Below, piece after piece: positions 328 to 7,060 of a stretch of 64,000 bases of DNA (positions are counted from its first letter, which is position 1; each line of letters begins with the position of its first letter). The stretch is from NCBI RefSeq assembly GCF_003790525.1, contig NZ_CP033635.1. The stretch is one strand, 5' to 3'. The position numbers and the translations under genes were made by a program. This stretch comes from Escherichia coli. GTDB taxonomy: Bacteria > Pseudomonadota > Gammaproteobacteria > Enterobacterales > Enterobacteriaceae. A model generated the notes under the pieces. That model did not search any database. It was not told the DNA's origin and saw only the letters and a list, made by a program, of their open reading frames with translations.

Positions 328-1383
328 TTAACGCAAGCTATTATAGTCATCGACCATTTCGTTGTACTCGCGTAACGCTCGTGGAAATGAGTCGTCGACC
401 ATCCAGCTTGTGTTTGCATCCTGAAGTTGCTCTTTATCCCAGTCAGAATACGGAACTTTATCTCTGACGCGGCGAACATATTTTTTAGCCTCGAGTTGAT
501 ACTGGTCTGCCGAATTAATGAACGAGAAATTCATACCGCCTTTATCCGCTTCTTTGGCCTGCGCCACCAGCGTTTCCAGTTCAGACACTTTCTTCATTGC
601 CGCATCAACATCAAACTTCTCTTGCGATATCAGGTTATTAATTTGTTTCGCTGAAATCATGACTGCCAGAGAATAGTAGTGGAATGTTTTCCCTTCTCTT
701 TCTTCAATATTTTTCAGTTCCGCAAGCTGACGCTTATCATTAATTTCCTGGATCGCCGCATGATAAGATTCGGCTACAGGTTCAAAGGCTTCCAGATTTT
801 TTAAGAATGTCTGGTGCAGCGTTTTCCCTTTCGCAAACGCATCGTCTTTATAATTTTCCTGGGTGTAATATTTATCCATTTCGTTAATGGTATTACCCAA
901 CGCCACGGCAGCATCGATATAACTCACCGCTACGCCATCAATAGGTTGCAGCGCAGGCGTTAACGCCACAGCACTTTTTACGCCTTTTTCACACTCAGCG
1001 AGGCTGGATTCACTAAAGCCGTAGATGCCATAAACAGTACTCTCTTTACCGGTAGGCCCCTGTTTAAAATCTTTCAGCCAGTCAGCATAACGCGCCAGAC
1101 TGCGCTGTACCGGGATCTGTAACTTGTTGTAGCACTTGATATAGACATCCATTTTTTCGTCGAAAACCGCTTGTTCATCGACCACCGGTTGGGCAGGAGT
1201 TTCAGGTTTAACTTCTGCTTTTGCAACGGGAGCTTCAGCAGGTTTCGCTTCAGGAGCTGGTGCGGCAGGTTGACTATTGGCAGGCGGGGGCGTTTCTGTT
1301 TCGGCTTTTTTATCATCACAACCCGTGAGACCGAGGGCCATGATGGCGACTATAATAGCGGAAGATAATAAATTCCTTTTCAT
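328..1383 (-). CDS. yiiG: Lipoprotein YiiG (DUF3829 family), 351 aa
   Basis: The N-terminus MKRNLLSSAIIVAIMALGLTGC carries a lipobox (LTG-C), followed by a Pro/Ala/Glu-rich linker. Length and context match K-12 YiiG. Confidence 0.9.
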   Translation of the reverse strand: MKRNLLSSAIIVAIMALGLTGCDDKKAETETPPPANSQPAAPAPEAKPAEAPVAKAEVKPETPAQPVVDEQAVFDEKMDVYIKCYNKLQIPVQRSLARYADWLKDFKQGPTGKESTVYGIYGFSESSLAECEKGVKSAVALTPALQPIDGVAVSYIDAAVALGNTINEMDKYYTQENYKDDAFAKGKTLHQTFLKNLEAFEPVAESYHAAIQEINDKRQLAELKNIEEREGKTFHYYSLAVMISAKQINNLISQEKFDVDAAMKKVSELETLVAQAKEADKGGMNFSFINSADQYQLEAKKYVRRVRDKVPYSDWDKEQLQDANTSWMVDDSFPRALREYNEMVDDYNSLR

Positions 1384-1497
1384 TTAATTGCCTTATAAAT
1401 ATTTAGATAAGAGAGATAATATTTTAAATGAAAAAATGATCCGTCACTATACACATTTTGCTTATAAACAAACCGAAATCATTCACACTCCGAATAA

Positions 1498-1528
1498 TTC
1501 CTGCGACTTAAAATATAAATCGCAGGAA
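1498..1528 (-). terminator. Candidate terminator hairpin of the two-gene accessory cassette
   Basis: ttcctgcga ... tcgcaggaa arms (9-bp stem, AT-rich loop) lie about 50 nt downstream of the 768-aa ORF stop. On the minus strand a T-rich tract (ttatt) follows. Confidence 0.45.
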
Positions 1529-1577
1529 GCGATTTTAATTACCCGCTCTACCACTGGCGCAGGATATAAACTCTCAC

Positions 1578-3884
1578 CTACATTCCATAACGTTCAGAAA
1601 TAGCAGCATGCTTCTCTTCATTCGCCCCGGCTTCTTTGGCAAGACGCCACCAGCACAACGGATGTTCCCAGTCAGCGGTCAATTCGTGCAAGGTCTTATC
1701 GATATCACCTTTAGAAACTGAACGCGGCGCGCTGATAACAAAGTAGAACGCGGGCAGCGGCTGTGCATCTTCTCCCTGCTGGCTGTCCGTTAACGTATAG
1801 TCCTCGTTACTGTTGCTCCAGTAGTACCAGTTTCGTTCACGGAGCGCCTCACGGAAGGCATTAAACTGTTCTTCACCAGGCATGACACCTTCGCAGAACC
1901 AGGACTCGCCGTACTCAGTCGGGATAATGGTTTGCAGGCAGGCATAAAGTGGCGTGAAATTCTTCCGTTCTTCCTCATCCTCTGGTTGGGTGTTCAATAT
2001 TTCCGCATCGAATACCACAACTTCATCAACATGTTGCGGATAATCGGTCCGGTAAGTTGGCTCAATGATCCTTGCTGTTACCGGCCCAATACGTTGAGCA
2101 TAGTAATAGCGGTATTCATAATTTTCCCGGAAGCGAATGTTTAGCAGTCCCCATTTTTCGTCGATAAAACCTTCACCTTCCGTAAGTTCGATTTCCAGTT
2201 CAGCTGCAATAGCACGAACCAAATCCCATTGTTGCAGGATGCTGGCGGTCGCCATGATATCCCACTGGATATTACGAATATCTTCTTCACGGCTAATCAT
2301 CAGTTGCTGCAATTGTTGTAAATAATCCAGCTGTCGATCCCAGGCTTCCTGTTTTTGTGCTGCCCAGGAGCACATGCGATAAACGCCGATCCACTCACGC
2401 CCTTTTTCGTTTTGCAGCAACTGGTGCCCAATCGACTCGAGTTCACTCCAGTCTTCCTGTTGGTTGATCACTCGCGCACGGAACCACAAGGCCATATGTA
2501 GCAGCCCCGCCTGTTCATACTGCTTCGCCAGGTGCTCAATGGTTTGCAGATCGTCACGGTGGAGCAATAAATCCAACAGATCGAAGCAAAGACCATTATC
2601 TTCCTGGATGTGGCTTTCGACGTAGCGTTGCAGAAGTTCAATCGACTCATCAATCGCATTACAGGCGTTTAACGCATTGACCAGTTTGCCCAGCAATTCC
2701 GCATCATCTGGCGCGTTCAGGTAAGCGCGGCGGAATGTTTCGACGTCTTTTTCTGGATCTGGCTGCGTTTCTTCATCGCTATTTTCAGGTACTTCTACAA
2801 CCGGACGAGCAAGCAACTCTGCTTCTTTGGCGGCGATTTTTTCACTCAGTTCGAGAAACTCACGATCAACCCCCAGTAACACGCGTAATTTTGGCATGTG
2901 TCGCTGGGCCAGTTTCATCGCTATTTTGGCAACCCAGACGGATTCACGCTCCAGCGCCAGGGTAATTTGCAGTTTCGCCAGATCAACCACTTTGCGGTGC
3001 GCTCCGGCCTGCGAGCGGTGCTCCAGCATTTTTTGGATGATGCGCGCCAGTTGCCAGTTGTTTCTTTGTGGATGACGGGGAAGTAACACAGTAATGATTT
3101 TCAGCCATGACCCCCATGAATGGGGAGTCAGATCTGACCAACGCGGTAATTCCTCCCAGACTTCTTCGTCCTGCCCGCATAACGCCATGATGTACAGTTT
3201 TTTGAGGTGATTACTAATGCGGTCGCGGCCCCAGTAATCATTGGCTTCTGTCAGCTCATCAATCAGTATGCGTGCTTCATCATAACGCTGAAGTTCAATC
3301 AGAATATCGGCACGAGTATAAAGTAATGCATCAATATCATCTTCCCCGGCTGCTTTAACTGCGTCGATTTGTCGATCCAGATAAGCCAGTGCCTCCTCTA
3401 TTCTTTTGGAATCTATCAGTGCACTGGCATATTCAGTGGACAAACACTGAAAACAGCTCCAGGTCGGATCAATCCGCGCGATGGTTTCTTCACATACCGC
3501 CATACGTTCATTCGCCCAGCCAGGTGCATCAATATTTTCGTAGCAGGCGGATAAATCCTGGGTAACGCAGATAGATTGTGGGCAATCTTTTGTCTCTTCC
3601 CGGTGCGCTTTTTCAAACAGCGCTACCACGTCTGGCAGCACCTTTTCACCTTCTTCATAGTTAGTCAGGCGATGACGCATTTCCCAGTGACCAATAAATA
3701 TTTCCAGCCACGGATTTTTTGCCACCTGGGTAAGTGCTTTTACTTCAGGTAACAGCGAATCGCACTTTTCCATTTGCAGGTGCATAACGCCTTCCGAATA
3801 ATCATCGATAAGTTGCGGAATATACTCCTGCCCGGCATCGCGTAACTCCTTAGTATATTTGTGATACCACTCCCATATATCCAT
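1578..3884 (-). CDS. 768-aa helical-repeat (TPR-like) protein of unknown function, partner of the Hsp90 paralog
   Basis: Long uninterrupted ORF whose ATG (3884-3882) lies 1 nt after the upstream gene's TAA. The N-terminal ~550 aa are rich in Leu/Ala/Glu/Trp amphipathic segments such as ALLYTRADILIELQRYDEARILIDELTEA (TPR-like). It has a Cys cluster (C101-x4-C106, C114, C131, C144-x2-C147). The C-terminal ~200 aa show no recognisable motif. No signal peptide or TM segment. Confidence 0.8.
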   Translation of the reverse strand: MDIWEWYHKYTKELRDAGQEYIPQLIDDYSEGVMHLQMEKCDSLLPEVKALTQVAKNPWLEIFIGHWEMRHRLTNYEEGEKVLPDVVALFEKAHREETKDCPQSICVTQDLSACYENIDAPGWANERMAVCEETIARIDPTWSCFQCLSTEYASALIDSKRIEEALAYLDRQIDAVKAAGEDDIDALLYTRADILIELQRYDEARILIDELTEANDYWGRDRISNHLKKLYIMALCGQDEEVWEELPRWSDLTPHSWGSWLKIITVLLPRHPQRNNWQLARIIQKMLEHRSQAGAHRKVVDLAKLQITLALERESVWVAKIAMKLAQRHMPKLRVLLGVDREFLELSEKIAAKEAELLARPVVEVPENSDEETQPDPEKDVETFRRAYLNAPDDAELLGKLVNALNACNAIDESIELLQRYVESHIQEDNGLCFDLLDLLLHRDDLQTIEHLAKQYEQAGLLHMALWFRARVINQQEDWSELESIGHQLLQNEKGREWIGVYRMCSWAAQKQEAWDRQLDYLQQLQQLMISREEDIRNIQWDIMATASILQQWDLVRAIAAELEIELTEGEGFIDEKWGLLNIRFRENYEYRYYYAQRIGPVTARIIEPTYRTDYPQHVDEVVVFDAEILNTQPEDEEERKNFTPLYACLQTIIPTEYGESWFCEGVMPGEEQFNAFREALRERNWYYWSNSNEDYTLTDSQQGEDAQPLPAFYFVISAPRSVSKGDIDKTLHELTADWEHPLCWWRLAKEAGANEEKHAAISERYGM

Positions 3885-3885
3885 T

Positions 3886-5721
3886 TTATTTTCCTTGATT
3901 AATTAAGACAGGAATAACCTGAGTAAAATCTTCCAGTGCCTGGTGTAAATCCCACTGCTGTTCTTTATTACCGCTGGAGCACAAAATCACTTTCAGCGAT
4001 TTTAATAAGCGTAATGCCGCTGCGGGCTGTTGCTGGTGTTGTAATGCCGTCACCAGTTGCATGATGCAAGGGTTATTAAGGTTGATGTATAAACTTGAGG
4101 TTTTCGTTTTTTGGATTTGTGAAGTAAATTGCCGCGCCAGCATTAACGCTGCGGTGCTGATGCGTTTATCTGCGTCATCCTGTTCGAGAATTTGTTTTAA
4201 TTCTGCTTCGCGGTCTGGCGTAACCACTAACGGTAAAACGGCGGGTTCGAAGCGGGAGATAATTAATTGCTCGCCATCGCAGAGATGCTCTTCCAGATAA
4301 GCTACCTGCTCTTCGGGTAATTCCGCCAGGCTGAACAACTGCTCATTACCTGTTTGCGTACCGACTTCGACAATCCGGCAGTGATATAACAGCGCCCAGC
4401 GACGTAAAAATGGCACGACGGCATAGCGATCGCCACGGGCAACGGGCCGTTGCAGAATGTGGAACAACATCTCTTCAAAACCGCCGTCGCGGCTTAACAG
4501 AATATGAATGCTGTTATTAACGCGTAAATCCTTCGCCAGCAACGCCCCTTTTGACGTTGGCACCTGCAAGCGATCTTTGAGCAAATCAAACAGACGGTCA
4601 TCACATAATGCCGCACCGAGCAACGCTTCGTTGTGGCGCATTAATACACGCCGCCAGATTTCTGGCTGATTTTGTGCGAGATCGGACAAACCAGAAATCA
4701 GCGCCTCTTTTAACGCCTCCTGCACCGCAACCCAGGTTTCGTCCCGCTGGAGATCTTCCCGGCTCGCCGTAGGCGTTAGTTTCGATGACTCAATCACGCC
4801 GCCAATAAATCCGGCCCAGGGAGGTAACAACTCACGCGCTTCATCATCCAGTAACATACCGCGCAAAAACAGCGACAGGTTGCGGTTATCGCTGGTGCCG
4901 TAGGTTGCGCCATCCTGAATCCATAAAATCCCAACCGCGTCGCTCATCCCCACGGGCACCACCGGAATGGTGCAAATCGGTTCGAAGGAGGATTCAAACT
5001 GGGCGGCAAAGGCGAGATTTTTACGCTGTACCAGCGCGCGGTGCATGGTTACGCCTTCGGGGGCAACTTCACGCCACGGTGGTTGAAGTTTATTTACCGG
5101 CTCGCTGGCATCGCCGACATAGACCGGTTCGTGCAGCAATATACAGTAGCGGGAAAGAACGCGGTTCAGCAAATTGTTACTCGCCAGATGGCTGTACTCT
5201 TCTTTGAGCGTCAGAATCACCTGCGTACCCGTTTCCGAGGACTGATGCGGCGTAACGGTATATTTTTGCCCGTCGGTAGAGTGGTATTTCCAGCTCTGAT
5301 CCGGCGTTTGCCAGGATGTGGTCAACACCGTGACCTCTTTCGCCAACACAAAGGCCGACAAAAAACCGAGGCCGAACATACCAATTAAACCGGTGTTGTC
5401 ATCCTGCTGGCGCAACATTCGGGTATAACCCACGCCTACTGTCGCCAGGAAGCCGTGAATTTCACTTTCTGTCAGTCCAGCGCCAGTATCGCTAATAGTG
5501 ATAGTGGACTTCGCCACGTCTGCCACCACACGAATCGCGTTATCCTTTGGTGCATCGGGCTGCTCAATCCTGCGGCGAACGATCGCATCATGGCCGTTCT
5601 GCACCAGCTCGCGCACGGCAACCACGGGAGTGGAGTAAAGATGCTTACTGAGCACCTCAATTAAGCCGTTTAAATTAACTTCTGTAGAATATGAACTACC
5701 AGGTAACTGTAATGTACTCAT
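3886..5721 (-). CDS. Hsp90/HtpG-family GHKL ATPase paralog, 611 aa
   Basis: The protein aligns by eye with E. coli HtpG. TEVNLNGLIEVLSKHLYS...VRELVQNGHDA matches SEVKQLLHLMIHSLYS...LRELISNASDA. TITISDTGAGLT matches TLTISDNGVGMT, and LIGMFGLGFLSAFVLAKEVTVLT matches [23 protein letters not shown]. The middle-domain segment FIGGVIESSKLTPTASREDLQRD matches [23 protein letters not shown]. Confidence 0.88.
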   Translation of the reverse strand: MSTLQLPGSSYSTEVNLNGLIEVLSKHLYSTPVVAVRELVQNGHDAIVRRRIEQPDAPKDNAIRVVADVAKSTITISDTGAGLTESEIHGFLATVGVGYTRMLRQQDDNTGLIGMFGLGFLSAFVLAKEVTVLTTSWQTPDQSWKYHSTDGQKYTVTPHQSSETGTQVILTLKEEYSHLASNNLLNRVLSRYCILLHEPVYVGDASEPVNKLQPPWREVAPEGVTMHRALVQRKNLAFAAQFESSFEPICTIPVVPVGMSDAVGILWIQDGATYGTSDNRNLSLFLRGMLLDDEARELLPPWAGFIGGVIESSKLTPTASREDLQRDETWVAVQEALKEALISGLSDLAQNQPEIWRRVLMRHNEALLGAALCDDRLFDLLKDRLQVPTSKGALLAKDLRVNNSIHILLSRDGGFEEMLFHILQRPVARGDRYAVVPFLRRWALLYHCRIVEVGTQTGNEQLFSLAELPEEQVAYLEEHLCDGEQLIISRFEPAVLPLVVTPDREAELKQILEQDDADKRISTAALMLARQFTSQIQKTKTSSLYINLNNPCIMQLVTALQHQQQPAAALRLLKSLKVILCSSGNKEQQWDLHQALEDFTQVIPVLINQGK

Positions 5722-5987
5722 TTTTCAATACTCATAATCCATCACCTACTATTGAAAATACATCGCTGTTTTTACAACCGGTGCAAGGTTTGTTATTTCA
5801 TTCACTCATCGGAAACATTTATTTATTGACGCGATGATTAAAACAAAATGTCTTATATAAATAATGATTAATTCTTAAAGGATTAATGCGACTGGAGTAT
5901 ATCGATATAACCCGGAGTTAACGAGATAATTTCTTGTGGTGAAATTATTATTTGAATGCTGAATAATATATTGAGGATTATTTAATA

Positions 5988-6024
5988 GAAAAATAAAACC
6001 GCAATCCAGAATCAGAATTGCGGT
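5988..6024 (-). terminator. Rho-independent terminator of fdhD
   Basis: accgcaat / attgcggt stem (5998-6005 and 6017-6024) immediately after the fdhD stop, followed on the minus strand by tttatttttc. Confidence 0.7.
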
Positions 6025-6030
6025 ATTTCT

Positions 6031-6867
6031 TTAATTATGAATCAAACGCTGCGGATGGGTATAAACCGTTGCCCGACCCGGTTTACAAAAACCTACCAGT
6101 GTCAGATTACAGCGCTCAGCCACTTCTACAGCAAGCGTGGTCGCGGCAGACACCGCAAACAAAATCTCTACGCCGCACATCGCTGACTTTTGCACCATTT
6201 CATAACTGGCACGGCTGGAAACCAGCACCGCACCTTGCTGCCAGCTTTCCCCTTCTTGTGACCGGCGGCCTAACAGTTTGTCCAGCGCCACATGGCGACC
6301 CACGTCTTCATGCCCGCCGACCAGTTCGCCAGATGGCAACATCCAGGCGGCGGCGTGAGTACAACCGGTCAGTTGCCCCACTGGCTGAAAATCATTGAGA
6401 TGACGTAATGCATCATCCAGTTTGTTGAGATCAAACGTCTGGGTGAACGGTAGCGGCTGCACCGGTTTTCCGATGTCATTAAGTTGCTCCACGCCGCACA
6501 CGCCACATCCCGTACGTCCCGCCAGTGCCCGGCGACGCTCCTTCAACCCCATAAAGCGGCGGCTGGAAAGCTCAATTTGCACTTCCAGACCATTACAGGA
6601 AGGAACGACATCCATACCGAAGATATCGCGCGGACTTTCGATAATCCCCTCGGAAAGCGAAAAACCGAGCGCAAAGTACTCAAGGTCTTTGGGTGACGCC
6701 ATCATCACTACATGCGAAATGCCGTTGTAGACCAGCGCAACGGGAACCTCTTCCGCCACCTCATCTAACCGTGGGTGTTGTAAATCATCACGCCGCCATA
6801 ACTCAATTTGACGAACACCTGTGACACTTGTCACATTTTCGATTTCTTTTTGCTGTGTTTTTTTCAC
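6031..6867 (-). CDS. fdhD: Formate dehydrogenase sulfurtransferase/accessory protein FdhD
   Basis: The 278-aa ORF is divergent from fdoG. The sequence ([12 protein letters not shown]...GCGVCG...) and context match K-12 FdhD. Confidence 0.95.
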
Positions 6868-7060
6868 TTTCTCTTAACCAGATAAGAACACACACACCAA
6901 CATTATGGTATTCTGTTACAAACCCTTCCTGGATGGAGGGAAATTGAGCCAATTCTGGACCTTTGCGGCCCCTTCCGCAAAGAAAAATAACTCCCACTCC
7001 CTGCACACGCAGCAAGCGAATGTAAATGGGACGTGACAATGTCGAAACAAGGAGCAATCC

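Follow-up and report, generated by a model that had tools for sequence, protein, structure and literature searches.

Why should some strains of Escherichia coli carry, between two genes that adjoin directly in K-12, a protein of the Hsp90 family other than the housekeeping HtpG, together with a large protein annotated only as hypothetical? The question is raised by a stretch of 64,000 nucleotides from E. coli SMS-3-5 (assembly GCF_003790525.1, contig NZ_CP033635.1), hereafter the window, which matches NC_010498.1 at 100% and in which two genes on the minus strand occupy the whole gap between fdhD and yiiG. The first of them, gene A (3886..5721), encodes an Hsp90-family ATPase of 611 amino acids (aa; RefSeq WP_000105771.1, “ATP-binding protein”); the second, gene B (1578..3884), encodes its 768-aa partner (RefSeq WP_000355938.1, “hypothetical protein”), and the single base 3885 is all that separates the stop codon of gene A from the ATG of gene B. 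The original prediction, which was made from the sequence alone, had described a translationally coupled two-gene operon with an Hsp90-family ATPase as its first product, and both parts of this description are borne out, by the open reading frames (ORFs) themselves and by the Pfam and PDB matches and intact motifs of gene A. We consider that the pair is best explained as a dedicated two-protein machine, composed of an Hsp90 paralog and a co-chaperone or adaptor partner, and give this reading a probability of roughly 45%.

The Hsp90 paralog and its partner family

Gene A is made up of an N-terminal GHKL domain (approximately aa 1-205, positions 5107-5721), a middle domain carrying the catalytic-loop residue R321 (approximately aa 206-360, 4642-5106), and a C-terminal region (aa 361-611, 3889-4641), all, like the other features of the pair described below, on the minus strand. 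Pfam recognises HATPase_c_3 and the HSP90 middle domain (aa 274-353), and a sequence search of PDB yields TRAP1 (5e-30) and E. coli HtpG (5.5e-28) over aa 10-359. The NCBIfam model PRK14083, “HSP90 family protein”, matches aa 13-571 with 288.5 bits, below its cut-off of 455, and the HtpG equivalog model NF003555 matches aa 14-385 only, with 197.5 bits against a cut-off of 371. Since gene A stays below the latter cut-off, it is a paralog and not the housekeeping HtpG; judged by these scores it is a distinct clade, to which PRK14083 is the closest model. Of the three kinds of match, that to PRK14083 is the one that extends into the part where a C-terminal dimerisation domain would lie, aligning to aa 571, while those to PDB and Pfam end near aa 360.

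In an alignment of gene A homologs from 19 genera, the motifs HLYSTP, VRE38LVQN42xHD45, D78TGAGLT, GLIGMFGLGFLSAFVLA, and WAGFxGGVxES...TPTASR321EDLQRD were invariant or nearly so, and the GMFGLGF motif and a Gly-rich GxxGxG-like lid were conserved as well. The elements of the Bergerat-fold site, namely the catalytic Glu E38, N42, D45 and D78-T-G-A-G, are all present and align to TRAP1, and the TPTASR321EDLQRD motif, which supplies the Arg of the middle-domain catalytic loop, is invariant, with the TRAP1 alignment extending to aa 359. The catalytic Glu had previously been placed at E14, which is to be corrected to E38, within the VRELVQN motif. It follows from the invariance of these motifs across the 19 genera that the ATP site and the catalytic-loop Arg are intact, and on this evidence gene A belongs genuinely, if as a divergent member, to the Hsp90 family and is predicted to be catalytically competent.

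Published phylogenies have since 2004-2006 distinguished ancient Hsp90 paralogs of bacteria, known as groups B and C or as hsp90B and hsp90C (PMC1525184, PMC3708813). Chen et al. 2006 (PMC1525184) assigned the HtpGs of gamma-proteobacteria to groups A and C, and hsp90B and hsp90C were set aside as uncharacterised in a functional study (Press et al. 2013, PMC3708813). Gene A resembles the non-HtpG paralogs of group C (hsp90C, PRK14083) in having a GHKL N-domain, a middle domain with the catalytic Arg and an overall length of about 600-615 aa, and in coexisting with canonical htpG in gamma-proteobacteria; it probably belongs to this “HtpG group C / Hsp90C” lineage, apart from the housekeeping HtpG. 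It differs from group C and PRK14083 in falling short of the PRK14083 cut-off, and in having an obligate operon partner, of which the two papers cited above make no mention. As a separate observation, in PHROGs gene A matches phrog_32952, a family of unknown function (E = 1.4e-19, aa 127-558), from which it appears that some phage-encoded proteins share the Hsp90-like middle and C-terminal region.

The product of gene B yields in Pfam only a short TPR_19 match (aa 156-215), and no meaningful match, nor any named system, in PADLOC-DB v2.0.0, NCBIfam or PHROGs; Pfam likewise detects in it no P-loop, NB-ARC or NACHT domain, no helix-turn-helix (HTH), and no CHORD, CS or SGS domain. It nevertheless has numerous relatives, as an exhaustive profile search recovered 559 representatives (clusters at 50% identity) at E<=1e-30, the best 150 of which measure 539-801 aa and nearly all align end to end. 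The AlphaFold2 model, for which 96 homologs were available, is confident (pLDDT, the predicted local distance difference test score, 92.7). It displays helical repeats throughout aa 1-562, save for a linker: an N-module of such repeats (aa 1-360, 2805-3884) is followed by the linker itself (aa 361-376, 2757-2804), by a second block resembling tetratricopeptide repeats (TPR; aa 377-562, 2199-2756), and finally by an alpha/beta C-domain (aa 579-768, 1581-2150). Gene B is a new, well-folded family. A TPR-like partner had been anticipated, and the helical repeats are indeed there; the Cys4 site of the N-module and the alpha/beta C-domain go beyond that description.

The most conserved part of gene B is aa 1-160, with a mean identity of 57% to the window protein, close to the conservation of gene A itself (53-62% by tblastn, with close enteric relatives excluded) and compared with 32-43% for the rest. 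Within this segment lies the Cys4 site C101-P-Q-S-x-C106...C144-x-x-C147 (3444..3584), which presumably binds a metal: C101, C106, C144 and C147, together with H66, are invariant in 96/96 homologs, and both Cys motifs are placed by the model at the N-termini of two helices, an arrangement that suggests a metal site. The closest matches to the fold of gene B include MalT domain III, AimR and Rap/NprR, at 7-10% identity. Searched against PDB, the C-domain turned up nothing beyond a hypothetical Neisseria protein and ferredoxin-like folds of a generic kind, and has no informative structural relative there; a catalytic fold was not recognised anywhere in the protein.

Both are real genes under strong purifying selection. 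Across Escherichia lineages the ratio of nonsynonymous to synonymous divergence (dN/dS) is 0.02-0.04 for gene A and 0.09-0.12 for gene B, and these values give no sign of diversifying evolution.

Linkage and modularity across bacteria

A scan of 185,579 genomes, one per species, found relatives of gene B in 361. Linkage was counted in the best 80 of these 361 loci, which represent at least 20 genera, and in all 80 a gene A homolog, 53-98% identical, lies directly upstream of gene B on the same strand. The set contains Escherichia, Superficieibacter, Budvicia, Phytobacter and Kosakonia, and also many Xanthomonas, Stenotrophomonas and Lysobacteraceae, along with Pseudomonas, Acinetobacter, Psychrobacter, Wohlfahrtiimonas, Ignatzschineria, Azovibrio, Azonexus, and one Burkholderiales genome. 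The same order was seen in Xanthomonas campestris, P. aeruginosa and Lysobacter, and even at the 150th-ranked gene B representative gene A adjoins, the two genes overlapping there by 4 nt. Genes A and B are adjacent in every proteobacterial locus examined, and every one of 254 E. coli carriers possesses both, so that co-occurrence of the two homologs, by which the original prediction could be judged, is confirmed.

We found no third gene common to the loci. Clustering of neighbours over 21 genera returns only A and B, and a third conserved component was on this ground rejected. The 123 ORFs that flank the pair in 22 loci code for ABC transporters, two-component and cyclic di-GMP signalling proteins and metabolic enzymes, and include no recurrent defence genes or mobile elements. 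PADLOC matches among the flanks are confined to ATPase-type models (mad3, mad8, AriA and others), which we read as cross-hits of 8 ABC-transporter ATPases, the hits being summarised and not split by member.

The few exceptional forms of gene B are informative as to which of its parts goes with the Hsp90 paralog. In Pseudomonas poae (L095:7885-9003) the partner has only 372 aa and corresponds to gene B aa 1-357 (40% identity; hhalign E 3.5e-96), ending at the linker of the AlphaFold2 model and retaining the Cys4 motifs. A similar short partner is present in P. syringae pv. maculicola (L097:2273-3367), where it is called as two ORFs of 244 and 118 aa, a split that could be due to a frameshift or to decay. 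Conversely, Nonomuraea gerenzanensis (L098:5995-8271) has a full-length B-like protein, 25.5% identical, with no Hsp90 paralog within 6 kb, and this single protein has lost three of the four Cys. Because the short Pseudomonas forms keep the linkage, and the Nonomuraea protein has lost both the linkage and the Cys4 site, the N-module emerges as the part that always accompanies the Hsp90 paralog, and the C-terminal half as optional. The B-like gene of Nonomuraea adjoins miaA, and the approximately 1.6 kb upstream of it holds ORFs without a Pfam match.

A proposed chaperone machine and competing explanations

We propose that this ancient, self-contained operon encodes a specialised Hsp90-type chaperone machine, in which gene A would be the catalytically competent ATPase and gene B its obligate partner. 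The Cys4 N-module (aa 1-360) may dock on the Hsp90 paralog or regulate it, and the second TPR-like block together with the C-domain may form an optional module that recruits one or more substrates or acts on them. One transcript, with a start of gene A coupled to a short upstream ORF (uORF, described below) and with the 1-nt gap to gene B, would provide the two proteins in a fixed proportion. The proposal draws support from the retention of all Hsp90 catalytic elements in gene A; from the strictness of the A-B linkage, the absence of a third shared gene and the modularity of gene B; from the loss of Cys4 in the sole B-like homolog that lacks an adjacent Hsp90 paralog, that of Nonomuraea; from the fact that aa 1-160 of gene B are about as conserved as gene A, in a protein of near-constant length under purifying selection; and from the housekeeping gene context and the occupation of the same locus across relatives. 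On this reading the pair would be an Hsp90 chaperone system whose obligate partner belongs to a family not described before.

A number of findings weigh against this proposal. Gene A lies below both the HtpG and the PRK14083 cut-offs, so that its chaperone activity is deduced from motifs only. Its last ~25 residues are variable, and no EEVD-like or acidic terminal motif is found among the homologs of 19 genera; with the tail unconserved and the motif missing, the canonical eukaryotic TPR-clamp mechanism is not applicable. The TPR-like fold of gene B is as close to ligand- and peptide-sensor domains as it is to co-chaperones. Upstream of gene A no heat-shock promoter was found, and no sigma-32-like motif was apparent by eye; nor did Rfam reveal an RNA thermometer or any other family in the interval 1300-6200. 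Finally, patchiness (361/185,579 species genomes, 4.7% of E. coli) means that bacteria can do without the pair and have often lost it, a pattern that conflict systems typically show as well.

The chaperone/co-chaperone pair was one of two hypotheses put forward in the original prediction, by analogy with eukaryotic Hsp90 and its TPR co-chaperones, and it is the one that we favour, with the reservation that the conserved EEVD-like tail on which the eukaryotic partnership would turn is missing from gene A. As in the eukaryotic associations with Hop/Sti1, PP5, CHIP, Sgt1 or Tah1, an Hsp90 ATPase is paired with a helical TPR-like protein, and, as in adaptor co-chaperones, the modular gene B may devote one part to Hsp90 and another to a client. 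The resemblance of gene B to TPR proteins is generic, however: it is far larger than the TPR co-chaperones, contains a Cys4 N-module and a ferredoxin-like C-domain, and shows no sequence relationship to any co-chaperone family; moreover, the partnership is encoded in one operon, unlike that of eukaryotes. In the plant RAR1-SGT1-HSP90 system, the Hsp90 ATPase domain is acted on by a TPR protein in combination with CHORD, a module that binds zinc through Cys and His. TPR-like repeats and a Cys module are similarly placed beside an Hsp90 ATPase in our pair, by analogy only, as gene B has no CHORD, CS or SGS domain and no NLR-like client gene is linked to it.

To our knowledge, bacterial Hsp90 is generally described as operating without co-chaperones. 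Against this background we entertain, tentatively and at odds somewhat short of even, the stronger proposition that the pair is the first dedicated bacterial Hsp90 co-chaperone system, in which an ancient paralog would work only with an operon-encoded helical-repeat adaptor bearing a Cys4-bound metal, and which would represent an independent or ancestral invention of the “eukaryotic” principle of Hsp90 plus TPR adaptor. The strict linkage and the minimal N-module single out gene B as a candidate co-chaperone or adaptor of a bacterial Hsp90 that can be put to the test, and offer a handle on the function of the non-HtpG paralogs. In the open-access literature searched we found no paper on the gene B family or on the A-B pairing, and no functional work on the pair; the searches returned only family phylogenies and one genome note. 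TPR proteins are listed in a heat transcriptome of S. maltophilia, and could not be mapped to gene B.

The best of the competing explanations reverses the roles, making gene B a dedicated client or effector which the Hsp90 paralog folds, assembles or switches, and which itself acts through its Cys4 site and C-domain. Strict linkage, 1:1 synthesis and the lack of a third conserved gene are in accord with it, and gene B is a large, multi-domain and conserved protein in which the invariant polar residues H66, D110, D119, E133 and E151 could form an active or ligand site; the B-like protein of Nonomuraea, moreover, exists without an adjacent Hsp90 paralog. On the other hand, nowhere in gene B is a catalytic fold to be recognised, and the short Pseudomonas form, in which the C-terminal half is missing, is still linked to gene A. 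It is also unusual for an ATPase of the Hsp90 family to be devoted to a single client. The present data cannot separate this explanation from the co-chaperone model, and we regard it as unlikely, if the most credible of the alternatives.

The second hypothesis of the original prediction was an anti-phage or conflict module, in which the repeat arm of gene B would sense an invader protein and the GHKL/Hsp90-like ATPase would transduce the signal or execute the response, by analogy with STAND/Avs and MORC proteins. It could appeal to the presence/absence polymorphism in E. coli and Salmonella and the patchiness across genera, and to the fold matches of gene B, among the best of which are the phage AimR/Rap receptors and, from the STAND protein MalT, its sensor domain. 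The likeness to STAND/Avs proteins, the TPR arm of MalT and the RRNPP receptors (AimR, Rap, NprR) is one of fold only, however, and gene B has none of their NB-ARC/NACHT ATPase, HTH or effector domains. Gene A does share its Bergerat-fold N-domain with GHKL defence ATPases (Tiamat TmtA, MORC-like, BbrUII/HgiDII-type), and in PADLOC-DB it weakly matches Tiamat TmtA (5.7e-06, aa 13-137) and a type II restriction-enzyme model, BbrUII being weakly matched as well (1.3e-09, aa 11-195); these matches are limited to the ATP-binding domain, which in gene A is followed by an Hsp90 middle domain with an SRE loop and not by a MORC S5 or nuclease domain. With no full-length PADLOC match for either protein and no PHROGs match for gene B, the earlier statement that the pair corresponds to no named defence system stands, and neither A nor B accessions occur in the DefensePredictor paper or among the entries listed in its supplementary tables.

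Other features of the pair also speak against a role in defence. Neither Pfam scans nor fold searches reveal an effector domain of any kind in it, be it a nuclease, an NADase, a protease or a pore, and in the 22 loci it is surrounded by housekeeping genes and not by a defence island. The position of the pair is conserved across Escherichia species, and it is found in many Xanthomonas and Stenotrophomonas species; low dN/dS and the near-constant length of gene B are unlike the behaviour of fast-evolving sensors. Among the E. coli genomes sampled, the fdhD–yiiG site holds no alternative cargo: its other states are the empty site (K-12), a divergent or truncated yiiG, and an IS1-associated deletion. 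A variable hotspot was on this evidence rejected. There are no bona fide plasmid or phage copies of the pair, as the few matches in those collections are chromosomal records. The carriers mislabelled in this way are an 11.85-Mb Nonomuraea “plasmid”, an 847-kb P. aeruginosa record and a Salmonella whole-genome shotgun contig; these look like misfiled chromosomal sequence and are not evidence of mobility. A defence role is in our view improbable; if it were correct, the pair would constitute a new type of system without a recognisable effector.

Less probable still is a stress- or redox-switched holdase/foldase, in which Cys4 would be a Zn-thiolate redox sensor, as in Hsp33, that switches the Hsp90 paralog on when the cell meets oxidative or metal stress. 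The four invariant Cys, in two motifs at helix N-termini, are indeed arranged as is usual for structural or redox Zn sites, and the Cys4 site is lost where the Hsp90 linkage is lost (n=1). The argument is one of analogy only, however; neither a redox regulator nor a conserved neighbour with a role in oxidative stress was found, and Cys4 could equally be structural or hold an Fe-S cluster.

The fdhD–yiiG locus in Escherichia and its relatives

In the window the pair is bounded on the left by yiiG (328-1383) and on the right by fdhD (6031-6867). In K-12, which has no pair, these two genes adjoin directly, and K-12 DNA matches the window at 1-1541 and 6030-7100, which defines an indel of 4,488 bp (1542-6029). 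Both genes are present, in one chromosomal copy, in 254/5,426 complete E. coli genomes (4.7%), in line with the strain variability that had been supposed. The order fdhD-[A,B]-yiiG is repeated in a blood isolate of sequence type 131 (ST131), on contigs with a protein named by NCBI from E. marmotae and E. fergusonii, and in E. ruysiae and Superficieibacter, where the ORFs on either side fall into common clusters, with matches to FdhD, molybdopterin oxidoreductase and DUF3829/YiiG; the E. whittamii genome has the pair too. In Salmonella Infantis SARB27 it occupies the same fdoG-fdhD...rha region, with gene A 91% and gene B 76.5% identical, and the cross-references of that record give an LT2 counterpart for neither gene.

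The original prediction had taken the pair for an acquired accessory cassette with no visible mobility gene. No integrase, insertion sequence (IS) or tRNA accompanies it, as had been noted, but acquisition is not what the wider comparison indicates. Relative to the locus named from E. marmotae, synonymous divergence (dS) is 0.43 for gene A, 0.56 for gene B and 0.59 for fdhD, with nucleotide identities of 91.5%, 87.8% and 88.7%, respectively. Since the pair has the same position in relatives, and since its dS is similar in magnitude to the fdhD value, it was most likely ancestral at the enterobacterial fdhD–yiiG locus and was lost from most E. coli. The loss probably took place by deletion between two copies of the 8-mer TTTAATTA (unstranded), the left at 1534..1541 and the right at 6030-6037, the latter overlapping the fdhD stop codon. 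Deletion between them would produce the exact K-12 junction and leave the terminator of gene B to fdhD. The junction sequence by itself would fit a microhomology deletion and an insertion with an 8-bp target duplication alike, and it is the phylogenetic distribution, not the junction, that argues for loss rather than insertion.

A terminator scan places a hairpin 3′ of gene B at 1517..1535; a hairpin had been expected here, at 1498-1528, and one does follow the gene, yet it is the homolog of the hairpin found directly after fdhD in K-12, with which the alignment is unbroken through 1-1541. In strains with the pair, fdhD has a terminator of its own (5998..6024), a strong one with a 10-bp stem containing 5 GC pairs and then the T-run TTTTATTTTT, which lies inside the 1542-6029 indel and is for this reason missing from K-12.

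Between this terminator and gene A is an AT-rich spacer (5736..5997), the putative promoter region of the operon. Its low GC content (0.287 over positions 5701-6000) and the separate fdhD terminator agree with what had been described earlier, while the coding GC of the pair, at ~0.5, is like that of the host. The proximal ~100 nt of the spacer are conserved from Escherichia to Salmonella, and no minus-strand sigma-70 consensus within it exceeded the threshold of the promoter scan. The only Shine-Dalgarno-like sequence upstream, AGGTGA, serves a uORF of five codons, MSIEK* (5718..5735), the stop of which overlaps the gene A ATG (ATGA), and that ATG has no Shine-Dalgarno sequence of its own. The ST131, E. 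ruysiae and E. marmotae-named loci share the arrangement, Salmonella Infantis has it in the form MSVEK*, and the uORF may serve to couple translation of gene A by reinitiation. In Superficieibacter, the equivalent stretch is in frame and without a stop, and could lengthen the gene A protein by a few residues. The spacer between fdhD and gene A in the E. marmotae-named locus (L011:5541-6000) holds an extra insertion of ~150 bp with palindromes resembling repetitive extragenic palindromic (REP) elements, GCCGGATGCGGCG...CGCATCAGGC, which is missing in SMS-3-5.

Carriers of the pair include organisms of clinical or agricultural relevance, among them the ST131 blood isolate and other E. coli lineages, Salmonella Infantis, P. 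aeruginosa and P. paraeruginosa, Stenotrophomonas maltophilia, and many Xanthomonas species, and the clean natural presence/absence polymorphism in E. coli lends itself to isogenic comparison.

Both yiiG and gene B are unusually divergent among E. coli lineages. The nucleotide identity of yiiG between SMS-3-5 and ST131 is 83%, and between SMS-3-5 and K-12 about 94%, in contrast to about 97.6% for fdoG, and in several B2 strains the DUF3829 gene is truncated or re-annotated at this place, which suggests deep allelic lineages or recombination at yiiG/gene B. In E. coli TBU0218_11-3CC (L008, 8129-8943), IS1B adjoins fdhD, the yiiG-frv region is gone and rhaM is joined to fdhD, in what constitutes a different rearrangement of the same fdhD junction.

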